In this document: positions 2,502-12,493 of the stretch, in pieces
Layout of the letters: the number at the start of each line of letters is the position of its first letter
Position numbering within the stretch: position 1 is the stretch's first letter
Source of the DNA: a virus
Direction: 5' to 3' (one strand)
UHGV virus genome: UHGV-0097687
DNA: 26,529 nt
Translations under genes and position numbers: made by a program
Notes under the pieces: generated by a model
What the model saw: only the letters and a program-made list of their open reading frames with translations
Databases searched by the model: none
What the model was told of the DNA's origin: nothing

Positions 2502-2528
2502 AGCCCGCCGGTTCAGGCGGGCTTTTTT
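2502..2528 (+). terminator. Intrinsic terminator after lom
   Basis: AGCCCGCC / GGCGGGCT stem followed by TTTTTT. Confidence 0.7.
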
Positions 2529-2539
2529 GTGGAGTGGAT

Positions 2540-4603
2540 ATGGCAGCAGTAAAAATCTCAGGTGTGCTGAAAGATGGTGCGGGAAAACCAATACAGAACT
2601 GCACTATTCAACTGAAGGCAAAGCGTAACAGCACCACGGTACTGGTGAACACGGTGGCCTCTGAAAATCCTGATGAAGCCGGGCGTTACAGTATGGACGT
2701 TGAGTATGGTCAGTACAGCGTCATCCTGTGGATTGAGGGTTCTCAGCCATCACATGTTGGGACCATTACCGTCTATGAAGGTTCCAGTCCGGGGACGCTG
2801 AATGATTTTCTCGGTGCCATGACGGAAGATGATGTCATGCCGGAGGCATTGCGCCGTTTTCAGGAAATGGTGGAGGATGTGGCACGCAACGCTGAAGCCG
2901 CCTCTCAGAGCGCAGCGGCAGCAAAGAAATCAGAAACAGCAGCGGCATCGTCCAGGAACGCGGCGAAAACATCAGAGACGAATGCAGGTAACAGCGCGAA
3001 AGCGGCAGCTTCTTCAAAAACAGCCGCACAAAACGCAGCAACAGCGGCAGAACGTTCAGAGACAAATGCCCGTGCGTCAGAAGAAGCCTCCGCAGACAGT
3101 GAAGAGGCTTCCCGCCGTAATGCAGAGTCAGCCGCTGAAAATGCCGGAGTCGCCACCACAAAAGCGCGGGAGGCTGCAGCAGACGCAACAAAGGCCGGGC
3201 AGAAAAAGGATGAGGCTCTGTCGGCAGCGACACGAGCTGAAAAGGCGGCAGACCGCGCAGAAGCCGCAGCGGAAGTGACTGCAGAGCCCTATGCGAATAT
3301 AGTGCCGCCGCTGCCTGATGTGTGGATACCGTTTAACGATTCACTGGATATGATTGCGGGTTTTTCTCCGGGCTATAAAAAAATAGCTATTGGTGACGAT
3401 GTGGTTCAGGTCGCCAGTGATAAACAGGTTAATTTCAGTCGCGCATCAACGGCAACATATATCAACAAATCTGGCGAACTGAAAACGGCGGAAATTAATG
3501 AGCCGCGATTTGAGTGTGATGGCCTGCTTATTGAGGGACAAAGAACGAACTACATGCTCAATTCGGAAAGTCCAGCCAGCTGGGGGAAGTCATCAAACAT
3601 GGATGTGCCCGAAACCGGGAGGGATAGTTTTGGTTTTACTTATGGAAAGTTTGTCTGCAACGATTCTCTGGTTGGGCAAACTTCGGCTATTAATATGGCA
3701 TCAATTGCTGCAACAAAGTCAGTTGATGTCTCAGGCGATAATAAATACGTGACAACCTCATGTCGCTTTAAAACAGAACTGCAGGTAAGGTTGCGAATCC
3801 GGTTTGATAAATATGACGGAAGTGCAACAACTTTTCTTGGCGATGCGTACATTGATACGCAAACGCTTGAAATTAATATGACAGGTGGTGCTGCCGGCAG
3901 AATTACGGCACGAGTCAGGAAGGATAAGACCACGGGCTGGATTTTTGCAGAGGCAACGATTCAGGCAATTGATGGTGAGTTAAAAATAGGCTCTCAGATA
4001 CAGTATTCTCCTGAGAAGGGTGGGGCAACAGTATCTGGTGACTATATTTATCTTGCCACCCCACAAGTAGAGAATGGGCCGTGTGTATCATCATTTATTA
4101 TTTCAGGAGGCAGCGCAACGACAAGAGCCAGTGATTTGGTTAGTATCCCCACCAGAAATAATCTTTATAAGTTACCATTTACTTTTTTACTTGAGATTCA
4201 TAAAAACTGGGATATTGCACCAAACGCCGCACCCCGCGTGTGGGATATAGCAGCAGCCAATACCGGGCAATCAGCAATTGCAGCAGTCAACAGAGGTAGT
4301 GGTAAGTTATATATGAGTCTGTCAAACCCTTCAGGCTCGTATGTTAATAGCGCAGCGACAGATGTATTTGCAGAGAAAACCACATTTGGATGTATTGCAA
4401 AAGCTGATGGTCACTTTCATGTGGTGACAAATGGTAAAGCGGTTAATGAAGTTTATTGTGAATATAATGGCGTGACCGCTGATAAAAATATCCGATTTGG
4501 AGGGCAGACGAATACTGGAGAACGACATCTGTTTGGCCATATTCGCAATTTCCGCATATGGCATAAAGAATTAAATGACAGGCAATTAAAAGAGGTCGTA
4601 TGA
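2540..4603 (+). CDS. stf: Side tail fiber protein (Stf-like) with conserved N-terminus, Ala/Ser-rich repeat stalk and divergent C-terminal lectin-like (LamG-type) domain
   Basis: ATG at 2540 with GGAG RBS; N-terminus MAAVKISGVLKDGAGKPIQNCTIQLKA..GRYSMDVEYGQYSV matches remembered lambda Stf; low-complexity SETNA/AAAS repeats 2880-3280; C-terminal ..NIRFGGQTNTGERHLFGHIRNFRIWHKELNDRQLKEV resembles LamG_3 terminal motif. Confidence 0.82.
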   Translation: MAAVKISGVLKDGAGKPIQNCTIQLKAKRNSTTVLVNTVASENPDEAGRYSMDVEYGQYSVILWIEGSQPSHVGTITVYEGSSPGTLNDFLGAMTEDDVMPEALRRFQEMVEDVARNAEAASQSAAAAKKSETAAASSRNAAKTSETNAGNSAKAAASSKTAAQNAATAAERSETNARASEEASADSEEASRRNAESAAENAGVATTKAREAAADATKAGQKKDEALSAATRAEKAADRAEAAAEVTAEPYANIVPPLPDVWIPFNDSLDMIAGFSPGYKKIAIGDDVVQVASDKQVNFSRASTATYINKSGELKTAEINEPRFECDGLLIEGQRTNYMLNSESPASWGKSSNMDVPETGRDSFGFTYGKFVCNDSLVGQTSAINMASIAATKSVDVSGDNKYVTTSCRFKTELQVRLRIRFDKYDGSATTFLGDAYIDTQTLEINMTGGAAGRITARVRKDKTTGWIFAEATIQAIDGELKIGSQIQYSPEKGGATVSGDYIYLATPQVENGPCVSSFIISGGSATTRASDLVSIPTRNNLYKLPFTFLLEIHKNWDIAPNAAPRVWDIAAANTGQSAIAAVNRGSGKLYMSLSNPSGSYVNSAATDVFAEKTTFGCIAKADGHFHVVTNGKAVNEVYCEYNGVTADKNIRFGGQTNTGERHLFGHIRNFRIWHKELNDRQLKEVV

Positions 4604-4878
4604 AAGATTTAACTTTGAAGTTTCATGACAAACTGCAGTTTAAGGCCTTCCTGTCATCTCTTGGCTGGGCGGAAGATGAAGACCTCCAGAATAAACTGTT
4701 AGTTGATGAAATTGGTTTCACCTACACAGAAACAGGGGTAACAGAAGAGGGAGAACCTGTCTGTATCCGGAATGATGGTTATTTTGTCAACATTCGCATT
4801 CTTGATGACTTGTTTGATGTTTCTGTATTCTCTGATTATGTCGTGGAGCTGGAAACACCGCTTCGGGAATGGAGCTGA
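4600..4878 (+). CDS. Hypothetical protein, translationally coupled to stf (possible fiber chaperone/assembly factor)
   Basis: ATGA overlap with stf stop; 92 aa acidic protein; no recognised motif. Confidence 0.5.
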   Translation: MKDLTLKFHDKLQFKAFLSSLGWAEDEDLQNKLLVDEIGFTYTETGVTEEGEPVCIRNDGYFVNIRILDDLFDVSVFSDYVVELETPLREWS

Positions 4879-4890
4879 AAGGAGGAAATA

Positions 4891-5178
4891 ATGGATATAA
4901 GCCCCTTACTTCATGCACTTTGTGCTGTGGCTGCGCAGATACTGGTTGGTCTTTTTACCGGAAACTGGGCTTACGGAGCGATAGCCGGTTGTACGTTCTT
5001 CATTGCGCGTGAACATACCCAGGCAGAATATCGCTGGATTGAAATGTTCGGGCATGGCAAGCGAATGAATATGCCGTGGTGGGGCGGTTTTGATCCGCGA
5101 GCTTGGGATGTGGCAAGCCTGATGGATTTTGCTGTGCCGGTGGTGGCGTGTCTGCTGGTCTGGCTGTTTATCCGTTAA
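4891..5178 (+). CDS. Small hydrophobic (membrane) protein of unknown function
   Basis: Strong RBS GGAGGAAATAATG; 95 aa with two hydrophobic segments (LLHALCAVAAQILVGLF.., ..FAVPVVACLLVWLF). Confidence 0.5.
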   Translation: MDISPLLHALCAVAAQILVGLFTGNWAYGAIAGCTFFIAREHTQAEYRWIEMFGHGKRMNMPWWGGFDPRAWDVASLMDFAVPVVACLLVWLFIR

Positions 5179-5849
5179 ACATAAAAAGCCGCAGCAACTT
5201 GTCATGGCAGAATACTGCGGCTGGCTGGTGAACTTCCGATAGTGCGAGTATTGAATGATTTCCAGCCGTTATCGATTTTACGTATTTTTTGTATGAGAGA
5301 ATTTGCACCACCTCCTTCCGACCATCTATAACTGCACGCCACTATTTCTAGGGCTGCTATGTGCCAGAAACGGTAGTTTTTTATTTCTATCATTGATGTC
5401 GAGTTACTTGGACTATTTGATATGAATTAATAGGGTACAAAGCGATGCATAATGTGCAAATTGATTGTTTAGTTTACTGAAAGGGAGCCCCTCTCCCTTA
5501 GCATAAAATCATAAATCCAATAATTTAATGCATAGTGAGAAGAAGATTATCAACAGAATGAACTTCATTTCTTTTTTTGATTTTTCTTTTGAACCCCGTT
5601 ATAACAATCCGAGAAGTTAATTTTTCTATCGGTTTAAACATGGCAGCAACGAAGAACAAAGGAATAACGCCTGATATTAATGAAGCGACGCTAACCACCG
5701 TGTCCGACGGGACATTAAAATACGCAATAAATGAAACAGGTATGGTTACTAATAACATAAAATAAACAGAACGAATGAGTTTATATTTTAATTTGGCATT
5801 TCTTTTTAATTTTGCACCCTCACGGATTCGTGTCTGAATTATTACATTT

Positions 5850-7562
5850 CTAGGCCTGGGCTTCAGTTATAGTGGCAGCTTTTTCTAGATTCGATTTGAT
5901 GACAAGTTCATTTTTGTCTGCACTTATTTCTTCAAGTTTTTTCTGAAGAACCTCAACTTGTTTTTCACTTTCGATACCTTGCTTAGCCCGAATTTCGAGT
6001 AAAGATTTTGTCCTAAGTGCATTTTCTATTACATCTTCATCCATAAAACTCATGATATCCTCAACCAGATCCGGTACAAATCCCTCCGGCTGTAAATTTT
6101 TGCTTCTCAACTCTATAACCAAGTTGGCTGCAGTCTCTTTTGACATGGCTCCACTCGCGACAGAACCTTTCATATCTTTGTATACATTAGCGACTTTTGC
6201 TGCCACCTGTGTAGAAAGAATAACTTGTGCTCTAGCAACTACATCAAAAGTCGTAGGTAATTTCACTCCATTAGCAAACCCCTTATGAGACTTAAACCAT
6301 AATCTCTCAGTTATATAGTCTAAAGTGGCTGCGAATGGTATTGTTCTTTCTCCTTGAGTAGAAAAGTAATGTGATAGGGATTTGGTTATATTTTTACCCG
6401 TGATGAGTAGGGCTCCAGTTTGCTCTAACTTTATATTGCTTCTTCCTTTTCTTTTGTAATTTATCTTTGTGAAAATTTTTAAAGTATCAGCAATTTTATC
6501 CAATTCATAATCTGGGAATTCTCTTTTTAGTTTATCAAGTGTAGAGGTGCTTTCAATATTATACTCCGGCTTATCGTAATAATCAGTGTTAGCATCAAGA
6601 GAAATTTTCATTTTTCCTAGTTTTTCAAAAAACTCTATTTTTTTTATTGTGATGTCTGATTTTGTAGAACAGCTTTGTAGTAGATTGATCATTCCAGTCT
6701 TAGATGGGTCTGGATGTTGATTACGCTCGAAAATCTTTTCTGCTGCATAAAAGTAACTTTCAACTTCGCTTTGTGTTTCTTCAAAGTACTTTAATTCTAT
6801 TTTTGATTTATTTCCTGAGCGGTCTCGTAACCCCTTGACTAATAATAGAAATTCTTCAAACATACGATAATGAATATCGCCATTTAATCCTACAGCATCA
6901 AATAATAATTCCGTATCAAGAACTATTTGAAAATCATTCCTCCATGGCTCAGCATTCACTAAGTCTGAGTTATAACAGATCCCACCGTAAAGAATTAGTC
7001 CTTCTTCAACCTTGTTTAACTTATCGGTGAACAGAGGGTCTTTTGAATTCTGAATGATGAACTGACTGATAACTACGGAGTTCTCACTCTGCTTTCTGTC
7101 ATGAATAAAATATGAATAAAAATCTGATAATAGCTCTTCAATCTGCTCTAGATTAAGTTCTTCTTTACTAAAGGACTTAACGAATTGAATGAGCAAGTTT
7201 TTTATATAGTCTTGTTCTTCCTTTACTTGCTCGTAACTTGCTTTTAGATTATTGTTTCTATCAAATTTTTCAGTAACATAATATTTGCCATTTTTAAATT
7301 CCAACAAACCTATTTTCTTGAGTCTGTTTTTTAGACATGATTTCACTACAGCTTCAGGTATATCAAATCCATAGTCAGAATTTAGTTCCTGAGAGCACTT
7401 AGTTACGTCGAACTCCCATAACTGATGTATGACTATAGTTGAACATAGGAACTGAGCTAAAACATCGTATATATCTTTCTTATTTTCATGTAATTGACGA
7501 AAAAGAGCTGCAGATGCCAATAAACGTTGATCTTCCATAATTCCTTTCTTGAGAATACTCAT
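5850..7562 (-). CDS. Hypothetical 570-aa protein, AT-rich cargo gene (candidate defence or exclusion protein, function unknown)
   Basis: Long uninterrupted ORF in roughly 33% GC DNA; GGAGGGG RBS 4 nt before ATG; C-terminal coiled-coil-like region; no Walker, nuclease or RT motif recognised by eye. Confidence 0.7.
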   Translation of the reverse strand: MSILKKGIMEDQRLLASAALFRQLHENKKDIYDVLAQFLCSTIVIHQLWEFDVTKCSQELNSDYGFDIPEAVVKSCLKNRLKKIGLLEFKNGKYYVTEKFDRNNNLKASYEQVKEEQDYIKNLLIQFVKSFSKEELNLEQIEELLSDFYSYFIHDRKQSENSVVISQFIIQNSKDPLFTDKLNKVEEGLILYGGICYNSDLVNAEPWRNDFQIVLDTELLFDAVGLNGDIHYRMFEEFLLLVKGLRDRSGNKSKIELKYFEETQSEVESYFYAAEKIFERNQHPDPSKTGMINLLQSCSTKSDITIKKIEFFEKLGKMKISLDANTDYYDKPEYNIESTSTLDKLKREFPDYELDKIADTLKIFTKINYKRKGRSNIKLEQTGALLITGKNITKSLSHYFSTQGERTIPFAATLDYITERLWFKSHKGFANGVKLPTTFDVVARAQVILSTQVAAKVANVYKDMKGSVASGAMSKETAANLVIELRSKNLQPEGFVPDLVEDIMSFMDEDVIENALRTKSLLEIRAKQGIESEKQVEVLQKKLEEISADKNELVIKSNLEKAATITEAQA

Positions 7563-7634
7563 ACAGCCCCTCCGATCACATTTTTGATGGTTTGATACAG
7601 AAGCAACGTGTACTTATTTAATATTTAACAATAA

Positions 7635-7663
7635 ATCTACAATATTATTTCAAAGTGTGTCAA
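7635..7663 (-). promoter_or_regulatory. Candidate sigma70 promoter for the 570-aa gene
   Basis: Minus strand TTGACA (7663-7658), 18-nt spacer, TAGATT; about 70 nt upstream of the start codon. Confidence 0.3.
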
Positions 7664-8300
7664 TTTTTTTTAACTATCTAAAGCTAGATTCCCTTGGTAT
7701 ACAAATATTGTACAACAAAACAAAAATTTTCAGAGTTTTATTCTTTTATTTGCCGTAGGGGCTCGGGTTTGTTCGAGGTTTCCATCTGAAGCCCTCAAAC
7801 TGATGACCGACTTCCCTTGATTAAGGATAGCGTTGCATTGACCCGTTGAACTCACAGCTCATAACAGACATTCACTACGGTTATGGCAGAAAGGTATGCA
7901 TGCTGGGGATGGGGAAGTTGTGAAAGAAAAGAAGGCTGCTGCGTCGTTTGACATCACGTCTATCTTTTTATTGGTTATGCAGGTCGTAGTGGGACAAAAC
8001 TGAGACACATAAGGCCTCACAATGGCTTGCAAGGCTTTACATGTTTTGATGTAGTGGGACGTGTGAGCGCAGTGTTGATGGGGTAATGCATTGAATTAGA
8101 AGCGAATTCTTATAATTCGTAATGCTAAGATCGTAGGGGCGTCCCCATTTTCGGTACTACCTAAATCAATGAGTTACCTAACTTTTAGTTATGACATAAA
8201 GATATATATGCTAAGTAAGATATAGAGAAGCTGGTAAAGCAATTAAAGCTGTTGCTACGTGTGTGGCGGCTGATGTATAGCCATTTATGCAGATGAAACG

Positions 8301-8326
8301 AAAAAAAGCCCACATCTGTGGGCTTT
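8301..8326 (-). terminator. Intrinsic terminator (strong on minus strand, weak on plus)
   Basis: Minus strand GCCCACA-GA-TGTGGGC followed by TTTTTTT; lies about 230 nt downstream of the methyltransferase stop. Confidence 0.65.
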
Positions 8327-8443
8327 CAAGTCACTCGGGAGCCGCGGCTCCTTTGCGTATCCTTTTTTGTCTCCTCACCGTCTGGTCGGTGTCCTGCTGA
8401 GACTGCTAACTTCCTGTTTTTCTTGGTGTTGTCCTTACACCGT

Positions 8444-8457
8444 CCAATCATGATTGG
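8444..8457. repeat. Perfect 14-bp palindrome CCAATCATGATTGG abutting the att-like core
   Basis: Read directly from sequence. Confidence 0.6.
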
Positions 8458-8482
8458 CTGGCGGGAGTTGAACCCGAGTCCG
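8457..8482 (-). other. tmRNA (ssrA) 3'-end-like segment, candidate phage attachment-site core or remnant
   Basis: Minus strand CGGACTCGGGTTCAACTCCCGCCAGC matches the T-arm/acceptor region of E. coli ssrA as remembered (..CGGACGCGGGTTCAACTCCCGCCAGCTCCACCA), 25 of 26; similarity ends before the CCA end. Confidence 0.5.
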
Positions 8483-8554
8483 TATTTTTATAATTAGCTG
8501 AAATAAAACGATTAATACTAACCATTTTATTCTGCGGATCTTTTGCGGCTCCTT

Positions 8555-9454
8555 TTATGTCTGGATGTGGTCGTCAACACATCCTCTTTTAAATACAGGC
8601 GCTTTTACCTTAGTTGGATCATCTGTTTTAAAGATTTTCAATCGTTCACTGAAGAACATTACCTCAGATCCTTTGTACCGATCTTGAGCACTGTAGTTTA
8701 TTCCATATACTAATGATGATGTCTTATACATAGCTTGGATCTCAGGAGTGTTATCGTAAGAAACAATCCAAGGTGTTTTAATATTATTCTGTACGACTTT
8801 TGCAACCCTAACATGATCATCATGATCATAATGGTTGATATATAAACCTTTACCTTTTATGTAATAAGGTGGATCCAAATATGTTAATGAGTTTTGTGGC
8901 AATTGAGTAACTATTTTTTTAATGAAATCAATTGCATCCATGTTATATAAATCTATTCTGTGACGATTTTCTGATATTTTATGGATTCGAGAAATCAAAT
9001 CACTCTTATTATAGCGAGCGTCAAGCTTCCATTTCCCTTCTTGATTTTTACCGCCAATTACTCCACCTTTTAATATTCCAGAACGATTTGTTCTATTGAG
9101 AAAAAAGGTTGAGAAACCAATTGTTAAAAGATCATGGTCTTTAGGATTATTAATTATATCTTTCTGCCTAAACCATTCATCCATTGTAACTTCTGTTCTT
9201 TCAATTAAAGAACATAATTGATCTGCATGATTTAATACACTGTGCCAAAAAGCATAAACAGAAATATTAATATCATTAAGGATGATTTTTTCAGCTGCAT
9301 TTAGATGTAACAGTTTCAATGCTAAACCAGCACCCCCAGCATATGGTTCGGCATAATGTATAGGCGAAAGATTATTTTCTTCAATAATCCGAAGCATGAA
9401 ATTTGCAAGCTTGCCTTTACCGCCAGGATAGCGAAGTGGGGTGTTAAAACGCAT
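8555..9454 (-). CDS. Dam-family (alpha-class) N6-adenine DNA methyltransferase
   Basis: N-terminal PLRYPGGKGKL and EPYAGGAG (SAM-binding motifs comparable to E. coli Dam) and catalytic YLDPPYY; AGAGG RBS; AT-rich. Confidence 0.85.
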   Translation of the reverse strand: MRFNTPLRYPGGKGKLANFMLRIIEENNLSPIHYAEPYAGGAGLALKLLHLNAAEKIILNDINISVYAFWHSVLNHADQLCSLIERTEVTMDEWFRQKDIINNPKDHDLLTIGFSTFFLNRTNRSGILKGGVIGGKNQEGKWKLDARYNKSDLISRIHKISENRHRIDLYNMDAIDFIKKIVTQLPQNSLTYLDPPYYIKGKGLYINHYDHDDHVRVAKVVQNNIKTPWIVSYDNTPEIQAMYKTSSLVYGINYSAQDRYKGSEVMFFSERLKIFKTDDPTKVKAPVFKRGCVDDHIQT

Positions 9455-9488
9455 ATGATACCTCTAAATGTCAGATCTAAAGTATATC

Positions 9489-9528
9489 AAAAAAAGGGCT
9501 TTATGGCCATCACATAAAACCCTTTTTT
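9489..9528. repeat. Long near-perfect inverted repeat (about 16-bp stem, 7-nt loop) between the ATPase and methyltransferase genes
   Basis: AAAAAAGGGCTTTATG-GCCATCA-CATAAAACCCTTTTTT; on the minus-strand RNA the single mismatch is a G-U pair. Confidence 0.6.
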
Positions 9529-9534
9529 AATCAA

Positions 9535-11268
9535 TTAGTTATCTGACAGATATGATGAGATGGTAGCAGAATCGACACCATGTCCACTTATCATAATAAC
9601 TTTAAGACTCTTTATTAGTTCATTCTTGAAGCTATCCGATTGAACAGGATTTTTCTCGACCCAATATCGATATGGGTTATCTTTAACTCTTCCTTTGACT
9701 TGGGCCTGAAATTGAGTCGTATGTGCAAAATCTTTAAACAGTTTTCTAACTCTCCCTCCATGGTTTTTGTTAACTTTTTTATAATTATCTATAAGGATTT
9801 TTAAATCAATCGGAGCGTTACCAATCTTTAGCGTTGCAATTATGTCTTTAGCTGTTTTCATAAAAACAGCTTTTGTAAATTTATTTTTATTTTCCCAATA
9901 TGCATCATCAGGTGGTAAATTATATAAAAACTCAAAAATCATTTGGTCTGGAGGTAAGGTGCTTGGAAGCAAACATAAGTTTTTTTCTTTTTTGGCTTTT
10001 TTTGCATTAGCACTGTTGTCGTGAACAACATCACCGTCTAAGACGATCAAGCTTTTAGCTGTAAATTCTGGTATTTTTCTTGCCATTAAGTCAAGCATGG
10101 CAGAGCAGCTAATATTTATATTTCCTAATGGATTTAATATTTTATTTATTTTTCGATCTGTTATCAATTGTTTGAAAAAGTCGAAACCTTCTTTGTCTTC
10201 AAAATATACATTTGCCTTTGGAAGACAAATGTCATCATTAATTTTTACAGTTTCAACATGTAAATCAGCGTGGATATCTGTCCATGAAAGATTATTCTTT
10301 GTTTTAATATCTCCATATGTGTCTGTAAGATATATTGTTTTAAAGCTATCACTATCTTGTTTTGAACGATTATAGATATCCTCTATTATTAATGGAGAGT
10401 GCGAGGTCATGATTATTTGCAGATCGTATTGTTTTGCTGCTTTAGTTAGAATATTAATTAGCTCTAACTGTGCCGCAGGGAAAAGACCTGCATCGGCTTC
10501 ATCAATTAACAATATTCCGCCATGATAATCAGAATAAGTTTCCTTCAATCTTTTAAATGAAAAAATTGCCTGGATTAATTGTCCAACATTATCTTCACCA
10601 ACAGATACTGATTGGTGATCATAATTGTCACCATGGACAACCATTGAATCGATAGTACCTTTTGTTGCTGTTACTGAGCTTCCATTGTTTTTTAGTAAGA
10701 GTTGGTTACTCATCATTCTGATTTCATCAGAATTTTCATTGATGTACTGAACATCCCGTGTTGAGTAATCAGTCCTTAATGTAATAGGAAGAAGTCGTGC
10801 TAAGCTTAAAAAAATAACAGGATGAGTAACGTTTCTACTTTGGTTTTTTTCCGGTATTGAATCATTTCCCCTGACTACAGGCCTAGATTTATCTCTGTCA
10901 CTGTAGCTGTATAAACCTAATGTTAGTTTTTCAAGATGTTTGTTCGATGCACCATCATAGACACTAATTTTGACGTCCATTGAACCAGGAACATCAAATT
11001 GTTCTGAAAGCCTAAAATGTTCGCTGAAAGCTGACTTGAAGCTGCCATTTGTTAATGTTTTATATTGTGTTAAATCAGTCTCAGGGTTTTTGGTAAAGTC
11101 CTTTGTAAAGCTAAATATTTGGGCGATAATGCCAAGAATTGTGGATTTAGATGTGCCATTTTTACCACAAATAACAGTTAGGCGAGAACCAAACTCGATG
11201 TTTATATTTTTCAGTCCGCGAAACTTCACAACATTTATATTTTTTAGTTTGGTAATTTGATTTGCCAT
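9535..11268 (-). CDS. OLD-family ATP-dependent nuclease-like protein (N-terminal ABC-type ATPase, C-terminal Toprim-like domain)
   Basis: Start set at MANQITKLKNINVVKFRGL..; Walker A GKNGTSKST, Walker B/D-loop ILLIDEADAGL, H-loop MTSHSP; C-terminal ..FEDKEGFD.. and ..LIVLDGD.. resemble Toprim E and DxD motifs; 577 aa, similar in size to P2 Old and GajA. Confidence 0.72.
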   Translation of the reverse strand: MANQITKLKNINVVKFRGLKNINIEFGSRLTVICGKNGTSKSTILGIIAQIFSFTKDFTKNPETDLTQYKTLTNGSFKSAFSEHFRLSEQFDVPGSMDVKISVYDGASNKHLEKLTLGLYSYSDRDKSRPVVRGNDSIPEKNQSRNVTHPVIFLSLARLLPITLRTDYSTRDVQYINENSDEIRMMSNQLLLKNNGSSVTATKGTIDSMVVHGDNYDHQSVSVGEDNVGQLIQAIFSFKRLKETYSDYHGGILLIDEADAGLFPAAQLELINILTKAAKQYDLQIIMTSHSPLIIEDIYNRSKQDSDSFKTIYLTDTYGDIKTKNNLSWTDIHADLHVETVKINDDICLPKANVYFEDKEGFDFFKQLITDRKINKILNPLGNINISCSAMLDLMARKIPEFTAKSLIVLDGDVVHDNSANAKKAKKEKNLCLLPSTLPPDQMIFEFLYNLPPDDAYWENKNKFTKAVFMKTAKDIIATLKIGNAPIDLKILIDNYKKVNKNHGGRVRKLFKDFAHTTQFQAQVKGRVKDNPYRYWVEKNPVQSDSFKNELIKSLKVIMISGHGVDSATISSYLSDN

Positions 11269-11290
11269 GTTTCTATCTTGCTCCGTAAAA

Positions 11291-11309
11291 TGGCCACAAA
11301 TTGTGGCCA
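11291..11309. promoter_or_regulatory. Perfect palindrome TGGCCACAA-A-TTGTGGCCA between int stop and ATPase start (int terminator or operator)
   Basis: 9-bp perfect arms; on minus strand followed by ATTTTAC. Confidence 0.35.
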
Positions 11310-11326
11310 ATAGTTTCATGCTTGGA

Positions 11327-12493
11327 TTATATTGTTATCTTCTTCAAGCTTGTTTGTCCATCATATTCCTTCAGATATGAGCCATAGTGCCTGAAAAGCA
11401 TCTCCGGCCCTTTATGCCCCATTTGAGCTGCAAGCCAAAACAGGTTTGCTCCCCGGCTGATATGGCGGGTGGCGAATGTATGCCTGGTTTGATATGGATT
11501 TCTGTAACGAATACCTGCTTTTCGCAATGTTGGCACCCATGCTTTTTTCCTGATTGCATCAGCACTTGCCCAGGGCTTATTGGTCTTTGGATCTTCAAAG
11601 ACAGTAGCATCCTTCATGAATGTAAATGGCTTCTGATTTATCAGCGCCAACATTGCATCTTCTGTCAGTTCAACTTTACGAGTACCGGCTTTTGTCTTTG
11701 TTCCTTTGATAACACCGACAACACTTGCGCTCTGGACATGGGCAGTTTTTCCAACAAAGTCGATATCACGCCATCGAAGGGCACATAATTCAGAACTACG
11801 CAGGCCTGTATGTATAGCGAACCGGAACAGATTCTCCCATTGTTTGTTTCCGGCTGCTGTTAGTAATGCATCAACTTCTGCTGGTGATAGCGGATCAACC
11901 ACGTAGCTGCTTTCTGCTTCTGACTTATCACTTTGGTAGCGCGAAGCAGTTACCAACGATACGGGGTTAATTTGAAGTACCCCATCGGTTACGGCTTCAT
12001 CAAGTGCTGACCGCAGGAAAGATAACTGGTTGCGAATTGTTTTTAAGGTCGTTTTCTGGCTTTGAATCCACGCTTTCAGGATTGCTGGTGTTAATTCACT
12101 TGCAGGGCAAATGTGGAGTGAGGCTAACGCACTACGGCATTTTTTATAACCACCAATCGTAGAGGGTGAAAGTTTTCTCGTTTCGCAGATTTCAAGGTAT
12201 TCGTCCAGGTACATTTTTACCGTTTTGCCTGCAGCAGCATTACCAAAAATTTTCAAACGAGCAGAACGGGGAAAATATTCCGCATAAATGAATGTTCCCC
12301 TTTCGATCTTATTATGAATTTCGCCGAGTGTGCGCTCGGCGTATTTAATGTTCTTTGGTGTTACTTCCAGATTGGAAAGAGGCTCACGACATTTAACTCC
12401 TTTGTAGGTGAAAGTTATATTGATCGTTTCGCCCTGGCGGTGTTTCCTGATTGTTACGCCGCGCGGTAGTTTGAGCAGTTTTGTCTGGCCCAT
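11327..12493 (-). CDS. int: Tyrosine recombinase (phage integrase) with N-terminal arm-binding domain
   Basis: 388 aa; C-terminal catalytic motifs ..HTGLRSSEL.. and ..RHTFATRHISRGANLFWLAAQMGHKGPEMLFRHYGSYL (R..H..R..Y); start overlaps xis. Confidence 0.9.
   Translation of the reverse strand: MGQTKLLKLPRGVTIRKHRQGETINITFTYKGVKCREPLSNLEVTPKNIKYAERTLGEIHNKIERGTFIYAEYFPRSARLKIFGNAAAGKTVKMYLDEYLEICETRKLSPSTIGGYKKCRSALASLHICPASELTPAILKAWIQSQKTTLKTIRNQLSFLRSALDEAVTDGVLQINPVSLVTASRYQSDKSEAESSYVVDPLSPAEVDALLTAAGNKQWENLFRFAIHTGLRSSELCALRWRDIDFVGKTAHVQSASVVGVIKGTKTKAGTRKVELTEDAMLALINQKPFTFMKDATVFEDPKTNKPWASADAIRKKAWVPTLRKAGIRYRNPYQTRHTFATRHISRGANLFWLAAQMGHKGPEMLFRHYGSYLKEYDGQTSLKKITI

Follow-up and report, generated by a model that had tools for sequence, protein, structure and literature searches.

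Which gene serves a lambda-type side tail fiber when its tip is unrelated to that of lambda and the canonical tail fiber assembly gene, tfa, is missing? The question is raised by UHGV virus genome UHGV-0097687, a 26,529-nucleotide (nt) stretch of viral DNA (the whole of which is called the window here), in which three genes follow one another on the plus strand: stf (2540..4603), assigned from the open reading frame (ORF) list and encoding a 687-residue side tail fiber of the phage 21 type (phrog_1419, tail protein, E = 0); ORF92 (4600-4878), encoding an acidic alpha/beta protein of 92 amino acids (aa); and ORF95 (4891-5178), encoding a small membrane protein of 95 aa and forming the last gene of the late operon. 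Together they form the distal end of that operon, a side tail fiber module from a lambdoid phage similar to phage 21. The initial annotation of the window saw in it a swapped, lectin-like fiber tip followed by two unrecognised small genes that together replace Tfa, possibly as a new chaperone. Judged from sequence, one small-protein family, that of ORF92, appears to follow every LamG-motif fiber that we examined, across at least seven phage lineages, where Tfa or the S74 intramolecular-chaperone domain would otherwise be found. We have not found this generalisation stated in the literature.

A lambda-type anchor carrying a tandem lectin-like tip

The stf reading frame begins with ATG 2540, which agrees with lambda Stf (MAVKISG...) and with the phage 21 annotation; an alternative GTG lies at 2534, and the frame stops at 4603. 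Domain residue numbers, and the coordinates of the parts derived from them, are counted here from GTG 2534 (a 689-aa translation) and are lowered by 2 for ATG numbering, while the comparison with lambda was done with the 687-aa form. The anchor and stalk resemble lambda Stf, as had been proposed. The N-terminal tail-attachment domain (2546..2935, plus strand) is of the lambda Stf type: it matches PF08400, phage_tail_N (E = 6e-64, 214.5 bits versus a cut-off of 26.6), as well as the lambda Stf N-terminus structure 9e7m in a search of Protein Data Bank (PDB) sequences (E = 1.3e-46), and residues 3-159 are 71% identical to lambda orf-401. The Ala-rich stalk that follows (2936..3298, plus strand), built of AAKTSETNA-type repeats, has ~53% identity to the orf-401 repeat region. 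It is 97-100% conserved in most E. coli alleles that have it (some fibers have a different stalk) and is presumed to form a trimeric coiled coil; the homologous helix of DT57C LtfA forms a trimeric bundle (PMC10713586). At a conserved junction (3299..3526, plus strand; ..PLPDVWIPFNDSL..ATYINKSG..) the similarity to lambda stops and the shared tip cassette starts. The junction supplies invariant columns in the tip alignments of E. coli and Leclercia fibers (A4 and A5), and it is the low-confidence part of the structure model described below.

Beyond approximately residue 241, Stf has no match to lambda orf-401 or orf-314, and the part unrelated to lambda is therefore about 445 aa long; the initial annotation was right on the unrelatedness and too short in its estimate of roughly 400 aa. 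As modelled, the tip is made of two tandem lectin-like domains of the concanavalin-A (ConA)/LamG type with a jelly-roll beta-sandwich fold, an assignment based on Pfam, NCBIfam and PDB sequence matches together with an all-beta AlphaFold2 (AF2) model. This model covers the last 434 Stf residues, was computed from a 22-sequence alignment of E. coli and Leclercia homologs, and has a pLDDT of 85-93 in the first domain and a moderate 54-77 in the C-terminal domain. The first, ConA-like jelly-roll domain (3527..4129, plus strand) matches the "GTA head-spike fiber" domain NF048003 of NCBIfam over residues 332-532 (54.1 bits versus a cut-off of 36) and, in the PDB sequence search, the RcGTA head-spike fiber Rcc01080 (E = 5.5e-9). 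It is variable and a candidate glycan-binding domain. The C-terminal LamG or Laminin_G_3-like domain (4220..4585, plus strand) ends in a conserved RHLFGHIRNFRIWH motif, the protein itself ending in ...RHLFGHIRNFRIWHKELNDRQLKEVV. Its PF13385 match over residues 563-684 (E = 1e-5, 26.1 bits) falls slightly short of the gathering score of 27.6; precomputed PF13385 matches exist on the close homologs P0118, P0202 and P0302, homologs of this domain carry the name "LamG domain-containing", and the corresponding domain of IrisVonRoten Gp22 has been termed a "galectin-like domain" (PMC11990801). Domain search and structure prediction support the LamG-type ending first noticed and place a second ConA-like domain before it.

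None of the standard chaperones accompanies this tip. There is no canonical Tfa anywhere in the 26.5-kb window: no lambda Tfa or orf-314-like sequence was found (best tblastn E = 0.48), no window ORF matches Caudo_TAP in Pfam, and Stf has no Pfam match to the S74 domain (PF13884).

ORF92 belongs to a family linked to LamG-tipped fibers

As the initial annotation described, an acidic 92-aa ORF is coupled to the fiber gene. Its ATG overlaps the TGA of stf (ATGA) and is preceded by AGAGG; the product has a pI of 4.17, with 20 D+E versus 8 K+R, and no hydrophobic segment. Both small ORFs match PHROG families of "unknown function" (ORF92, phrog_1361, E = 3e-42; ORF95, phrog_1443, E = 2.5e-57). These matches, the ORF92 homologs in 147 phage records and the median dN/dS of ORF92 (0.32 over 68 pairs, taken from loci with ORF95 directly after and no second fiber) show that the two are real genes and not chance ORFs. 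The AF2 model of ORF92 (pLDDT 89.9) is a small beta-alpha-alpha-beta4 domain. A deep profile search added remote relatives of 85-110 aa with the signature M-K/R-D..L-K/R-F ... D.IG ... GY(F/H)VN.R ... P.R.W. The family comprises phrog_1361 and phrog_18574; matches of the ORF92 profile inside proteins of 1-2.7 kaa were discarded as spurious, these being PKD or TPR repeat proteins. By sequence, profile and fold, ORF92 is unrelated to Tfa (Caudo_TAP, PF02413, which includes lambda Tfa, P2 G and Mu U): the profile-profile probability from hhalign is 0.06%, the predicted fold differs, and ORF92 is half the size. Neither small ORF has a match in PADLOC, Pfam or NCBIfam, and we found no published functional description of the ORF92 family. 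"Unrecognised" is accordingly a fair description of the two genes in function, and not in annotation: phage 21 and numerous further records list them as hypothetical or membrane proteins.

The start of an ORF92-family gene abuts or overlaps the fiber stop in 205 loci from at least seven phage lineages (lambdoid, P2-like, T1-like, T5-like, Dhillon-, rV5-like and Leclercia phages), in which the fibers end ...GHIRNFRIWH.... The linkage is seen from both sides. When loci are selected by ORF92, the gene lies directly 3' of a homologous fiber tip in 57/57 (52 E. coli viral contigs, E. ruysiae and four annotated phages, L001-L004). When they are selected by the tip, 78 of 82 have an ORF92-family gene at a distance of 0 or +3 nt from the final codon of the fiber, the four exceptions being two contig ends, one fiber truncated by an insertion sequence (IS) and one nonsense mutant. 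ORF92 is intact in 78 of the 79 assessable tip-selected loci, and its loss from relatives with the same fiber, which would have spoken against the initial proposal, is thus not what we observed. Indeed, in Leclercia prophages, where ORF92 is only ~30% identical, its ATG overlaps the fiber stop by 1 nt in 80/80 loci; these fibers are 556-586 aa long, have a different N-terminus, are homologous from the Ala-rich stalk onward and end YHIRNFRIWHRLLTLNQINGLR (YHIRNFRIWHR..). In a P2-like prophage, the tail fiber H has a LamG tip and is followed by ORFs of 92 and 97 aa.

Within a curated phage collection, the 147 records with an ORF92-family gene include T1-like Drexlerviridae, T5-like Demerecviridae, Dhillonvirus, JenP2, Aeromonas phages and a Synechococcus phage; the LamG tip alone matches 205 records of the same collection. 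From stalk to stop, the window Stf shares 46-50% identity with the lateral fibers of KarlJaspers (T1-like) and IrisVonRoten (T5-like). The rV5-like phage JeffSchatz and the T5-like phage AKFV33 were considered as cases of a LamG tip lacking ORF92 and were rejected as such, since divergent family members stand at their fiber stops (HMM E = 6e-12 and 1e-24, respectively). The contig scan used patterns from the E. coli-type alignment that are narrow, adding E. ruysiae only, and is no gauge of the true breadth of the family; the relatives in Leclercia, Aeromonas and the Synechococcus phage were reached by other routes.

Two rearranged loci may be noted here. In the P2-like prophage (L212 7612-7836, GCA_031791655.1), a 74-aa Caudo_TAP remnant lies downstream of the imported tip/ORF92/ORF95 cassette and is all that is left of the P2 chaperone gene, G, which was displaced. 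In several phages and prophages (4C10, 4A7, 1W, 3W and D2), a three-gene mobile element, probably an IS66-type insertion sequence, truncates stf ~44 codons before its end and leaves ORF92 and ORF95 intact downstream (Lambda_4C10, L002 5947-8577; also L017 and L165-L167).

Possible roles of ORF92

ORF92 shares a trait with assembly proteins as a functional class, in that it lies immediately downstream of the fiber tip and is co-inherited with it. We propose that it is the dedicated accessory partner of LamG-tipped fibers, acting in Tfa's place, and regard this as having about an even chance of being right. The N-terminal domain of Stf would plug into a lambda-type tail tip, as homology shows, the stalk would trimerise, and each fiber chain would end in two tandem lectin-like domains for receptor recognition. 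Translation by stop/start coupling would yield ORF92, an acidic cytoplasmic protein, in roughly equimolar amounts with the fiber. It would bind the conserved framework at the extreme fiber C-terminus (the ...GHIRNFRIWH... strands) rather than the variable receptor surface, and it would be needed for a functional fiber as an assembly factor, possibly staying on the tip. The expected site of binding is suggested by covariation among 135 unique fiber/ORF92 pairs. Of the fiber segments compared, the final 30 residues correlate best with ORF92 identity (rho 0.78) and the variable part of the LamG domain worst (rho 0.46 for all pairs, 0.13 without those of Leclercia); alleles of ORF92 that are 95% or more identical are paired with tips that are 19-36% identical in their variable parts, the variable LamG part going down to 19%. 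Because ORF92 identity tracks the last 30 residues more closely than the variable parts, any contact with the fiber would fall on the conserved framework.

Several points weigh against this proposal. The contact between ORF92 and the fiber is a prediction from sequence. We rejected the covariation as proof of contact: with recombination junctions immediately 5' of the last 30 residues, physical linkage alone could account for the correlation seen there. ConA and LamG beta-sandwiches usually fold by themselves. For the homologous head-spike fiber of RcGTA, a single subunit, the paper describing it mentions no chaperone (PMC7296036). A requirement for help in folding is thus not obvious. Moreover, four lineages have ORF92 placed between the genes for a proximal and a distal fiber, an arrangement that suits a structural connector equally well. 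The suggestion of a possibly new chaperone has survived the tests applied and stays a hypothesis, and a structural connector is nearly as likely.

In its connector form, the alternative holds that ORF92 stays in the virion at the C-terminus of the proximal fiber and docks the N-terminus of a distal fiber, serving only as a cap in phages of the phage 21 type. We consider this quite possible, if still doubtful. The order proximal fiber, ORF92, distal S74-type fiber occurs in many phages (Tritos-type lambdoids, KarlJaspers, IrisVonRoten, fp01, AKFV33, JeffSchatz and Leclercia prophages), and the conserved N-termini of the distal fibers vary in step with the ORF92 subtype, M[AV]TxT[VN]IPxDIxxLK going with GYFVN and MAxRID with GYHVNLR. 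In IrisVonRoten, a T-shaped Gp24 is predicted to attach to the proximal Gp22 (PMC11990801), the gene between them, gp23, is labelled "tail fiber protein" in the phage record, and stop/start coupling would suit stoichiometric structural partners. However, the published AF-Multimer model gives gp23 no role (PMC11990801), and ORF92 is intact and under purifying selection in many loci without a distal fiber, including the window, phage 21 and the P2-like prophage. The window itself has no distal or further fiber gene, ORF95 coming directly after ORF92, and the dN/dS of 0.32 given above, which comes from loci of just this layout, indicates that ORF92 works independently of a second fiber. Nor has the ORF92 product been seen in virion proteomics, where the sole data set found consists of four analysed bands of an AKFV33 virion gel; it confirmed the LamG fiber ORF137 in virions, and a 10-kDa protein was undetectable by its design (PMC3326045). 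Proteomics of SH6 virions was set aside as irrelevant, the second fiber of SH6 being of the S74 type.

Two further readings would take ORF92 away from the fiber or tie it to ORF95. If ORF92 had a function unconnected with the fiber, as a late regulator, an anti-defence protein or a moron that travels in the recombination cassette of the tip, its lack of homology or fold match to any fiber-related protein would be expected, as would the large degree to which its identity is uncoupled from that of the tip. Hitch-hiking would leave unexplained an overlap or adjacency kept down to ~30% identity, in at least seven lineages and with varied anchors and downstream genes, whereas the true morons at these loci (sitABCD, the window cargo and ORF95) are exchangeable; ORF92 also has no match in PADLOC, and we judge this reading unlikely. 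The initial annotation implied that ORF92 and ORF95 form a two-gene unit replacing Tfa, for example as a membrane-anchored assembly site. The window and phage 21 have the two genes side by side, as does the P2-like prophage, which acquired both together. Against such a unit, ORF95 is absent from 80/80 Leclercia loci, as it is from those of the T1-like, T5-like and rV5-like phages that we examined; in Tritos-type phages, inserted fiber genes separate it from ORF92 and shift it downstream; and in nearly all E. coli-type loci its sequence holds at 92-99% identity (79-84% in L052 and L053) irrespective of which tip or ORF92 allele is present, while ORF92 falls to 54%. ORF95 relatives are also found without ORF92 after other types of fiber. 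A joint unit is therefore very improbable: of the proposed pair, ORF92 stands as a hypothetical replacement for Tfa and ORF95, with its independent distribution, does not.

Considering the family as a whole, we think it somewhat probable that ORF92 and its relatives form a widespread new class of fiber accessory proteins, obligatory for LamG fibers with the ...HIRNFRIWH... ending from lambdoid to T1-, T5- and rV5-like phages, structurally unrelated to Tfa, gp38, gp57A and S74, and perhaps serving as a hub for distal fibers.

Some observations on the fibers of ORF92 loci stand apart from these arguments. The second fibers 3' of ORF92 (L004 5682-6722, L214 4270-4947, L215 5289-7013 and L058 6315-7313) all have Peptidase_S74 domains. 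The 225-aa second fiber of KarlJaspers, annotated "putative lateral tail fiber chaperone", consists of little besides the N-terminus and the S74 domain. One lambdoid prophage (L187 6669-8704) has Stf, ORF93, an S74 fiber and then a fiber with an Stf-like N-terminus and a canonical Tfa, making three fiber genes in a row. AKFV33 ORF137 (L221 1584-3938) ran at 95.8 kDa (PMC3326045, Table 3); with 784 residues it should weigh ~85 kDa by rough estimate, and the ~10-kDa excess is near the size of an ORF92-family product, but may be a gel artefact.

ORF95 is a separate membrane protein

The 95-aa membrane ORF reported in the initial annotation is present, with a strong GGAGG Shine-Dalgarno sequence and hydrophobic segments at residues ~1-27 and 71-95; its counterpart in phage 21 is annotated "putative membrane protein, 2 TMDs" (transmembrane domains). 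Members of its family occur without ORF92 in the podovirus phiv142-3 (L217 3486-3785), after the fiber gene and just before the lysis genes, and in the Halomonas myovirus phiHAP-1 (L218 3501-3806), where the gene overlaps the Tfa gene. Such positions at unrelated fiber loci hint at a general membrane function associated with fiber loci. ORF95 is a separate, dispensable small inner-membrane protein of diverse fiber-locus 3' ends, outside the ORF92 partnership. From its position, a role in superinfection exclusion or surface modification (Cor/Llp-like) is plausible.

Distribution of the module and comparison with known systems

The initial annotation implied that the module is rare, which it is not. 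The same 3-kb module is present at 96-97% identity in phage 21, mEp460, ev017, ev207 and Perceval, and at least 80% of it is found in ~450 of 5,426 complete E. coli genomes (~8%). Phage 21 (OL657228: CPT_21_22, 23 and 24, annotated "side tail fiber", "hypothetical protein" and "putative membrane protein") has the same three genes in the same order, with a terminator upstream, and its proteins are 96.8% (Stf), 96.7% (ORF92) and 96.8% (ORF95) identical to those of the window. The two differ in their flanks: phage 21 has no lom and carries sitABCD downstream, whereas in the window lom lies upstream, and the low-GC cargo downstream includes a PD-Lambda-5-type methyltransferase. The window locus itself is neither rare nor surprising; it is a widespread mosaic Stf of the phage 21 type that had already been sequenced.

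The receptor-specificity module swap that was first proposed is supported. The tip has been met on many anchors, and its database homologs number more than 2,600. It is fused to lambda-type (PF08400), P2-type (PF12571) and Mu/P2-repeat (PF03406) N-termini, and stalk and tip together also occur on T1-like, T5-like, rV5-like and Leclercia-prophage anchors. Between alleles with a 99%-identical stalk and ORF92, the lectin-like domains drop to 19-44% identity; they are probably the hypervariable receptor-recognition part, with an O-antigen or capsule glycan as the likely ligand.

Comparison with lambda Stf/Tfa (orf-401, orf-314 and orf-194) shows a shared position after J and lom, a shared N-terminal anchor and stalk, and a small gene next in line; in the window, however, the tip is unrelated after ~241 and the downstream gene is not Caudo_TAP. 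The tip class is already in the literature as a model, that of BASEL phage IrisVonRoten. Gp22 of this phage is 46% identical to Stf over residues 130-689, across stalk and both lectin-like domains (E = 6e-169); the C-terminal motif is shared, and here too a 92-aa gene, gp23, overlaps the fiber gene. Humolli et al. 2025 (PMC11990801) describe Gp22 as a proximal lateral tail fiber that has a galectin-like C-terminal domain and is predicted to bear the T-shaped Gp24. Unlike the window fiber, which has no distal partner, Gp22 has a T5-type N-terminal anchor and the distal fiber Gp24. Rcc01080 of RcGTA (NF048003; PDB 6tb9 sequence) is related to the first lectin-like domain of Stf. This protein, a flexible single subunit, has capsular polysaccharide as its ligand (PMC7296036). 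The match is one of sequence homology and not to a solved fold, since only residues 2-10 are resolved, and the likeness in fold is predicted; Rcc01080 is anchored at a capsid vertex by an N-terminal (I/L)-G repeat, whereas in the window the domain sits on a trimeric tail fiber stalk. The branched LtfA/LtfB fibers of DT57C and gp14/gp15 of phiEco32 are examples of a distal fiber mounted on a proximal one and resemble some ORF92 loci in gene order. LtfA and LtfB both end in S74 domains, with no ORF92-type gene described, in contrast to the window fiber, which has no S74 domain; we rejected the pair as a direct analogue, both being of the S74 type and cryo-EM (electron cryomicroscopy) resolving the N-terminus of LtfA only.

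Some records in the comparison carry unexpected hosts. H124, H128, H236, H237 and H292-H294 ("Campylobacter phage" C13, A116 and C15; "Listeria phage LM 4-14-1") are identical or nearly identical to E. coli T5-like or rV5-like phages. The hosts have probably been mislabelled, unless these are assemblies of contaminants.

Genomic context of the window

Across the window, the genes run in vegetative lambdoid order: J, Lom, a hairpin, the fiber module, cargo, integrase, repressor, replication genes, DUF968, methylase and lysozyme. The order of J, stf, cargo, int, repressor and lysis genes (2534-26529) is that of the vegetative (circular, phage) permutation and not of the integrated-prophage permutation. 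No tRNA gene was found in the window. The C-terminus of J (18-1808; Ig_J, Phage_Tail_Tip and Ig_GpJ_C domains) is followed by Lom (1876-2475), which lies upstream of stf. Between lom and stf, the terminator scan found a terminator-like hairpin with a T-run (2502..2531, plus strand); the hairpin itself (2502-2523) has an 8-bp stem with 7 GC pairs and is followed by TTTTTTGTGG. Downstream of it, 5' of the stf ATG, lies GGAG, and a terminator and ribosome-binding site are annotated at the corresponding site in phage 21.

Immediately 3' of ORF95 is an inverted repeat (5187-5222) of 8 bp, GC-rich, AGCCGCAG...CTGCGGCT, with a 20-nt loop, long enough for the terminator scan to have missed it. Read on the minus strand, it is followed by TTTTATGTTT, so that it probably terminates the leftward transcript of the cargo. 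The low-GC cargo region (window 5500-11320; GC 32-38%), between the fiber module and the integrase, has minus-strand genes at 5850-7562, 8555-9454 and 9535-11319. The first encodes a 570-aa product without Pfam or PADLOC match, the second a D12 methyltransferase with a full-length match to PD-Lambda-5_B (E = 2e-124), and the third a 594-aa AAA_15/AAA_21 ATPase that resembles PtuA, AriA and GajA. By its gene content, the block looks like a defence island at the position of the lambda b region, the place held by sitABCD in phage 21. It ends before the integrase gene (11327-12493, minus strand), beyond which lie the S24/HTH (helix-turn-helix) repressor, replication genes, DUF968, methylase and lysozyme.

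Implications

Side and lateral tail fibers set the O-antigen and capsule types that a phage can penetrate and are the main host-range handle in phage therapy and in lambda- and P2-based vectors. Chimeric fibers generally fail unless the matching accessory gene moves with the tip. The value of the present analysis, and its moderate interest, lie in the generalisation rather than in the window locus as such: a very common class of lectin-tipped fibers has its own small partner gene, which is not Tfa and is annotated "hypothetical" almost everywhere. One ORF92 allele tolerates highly divergent tips. The design rule that we propose, specific and inexpensive, is to transfer the tip and ORF92 together, with ORF95 optional. 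If the family is indeed a class of fiber accessory proteins, ORF92 would be the missing piece for moving a lectin-type tip between phages. Its family offers a defined target in the search for a new type of fiber assembly or connector protein.

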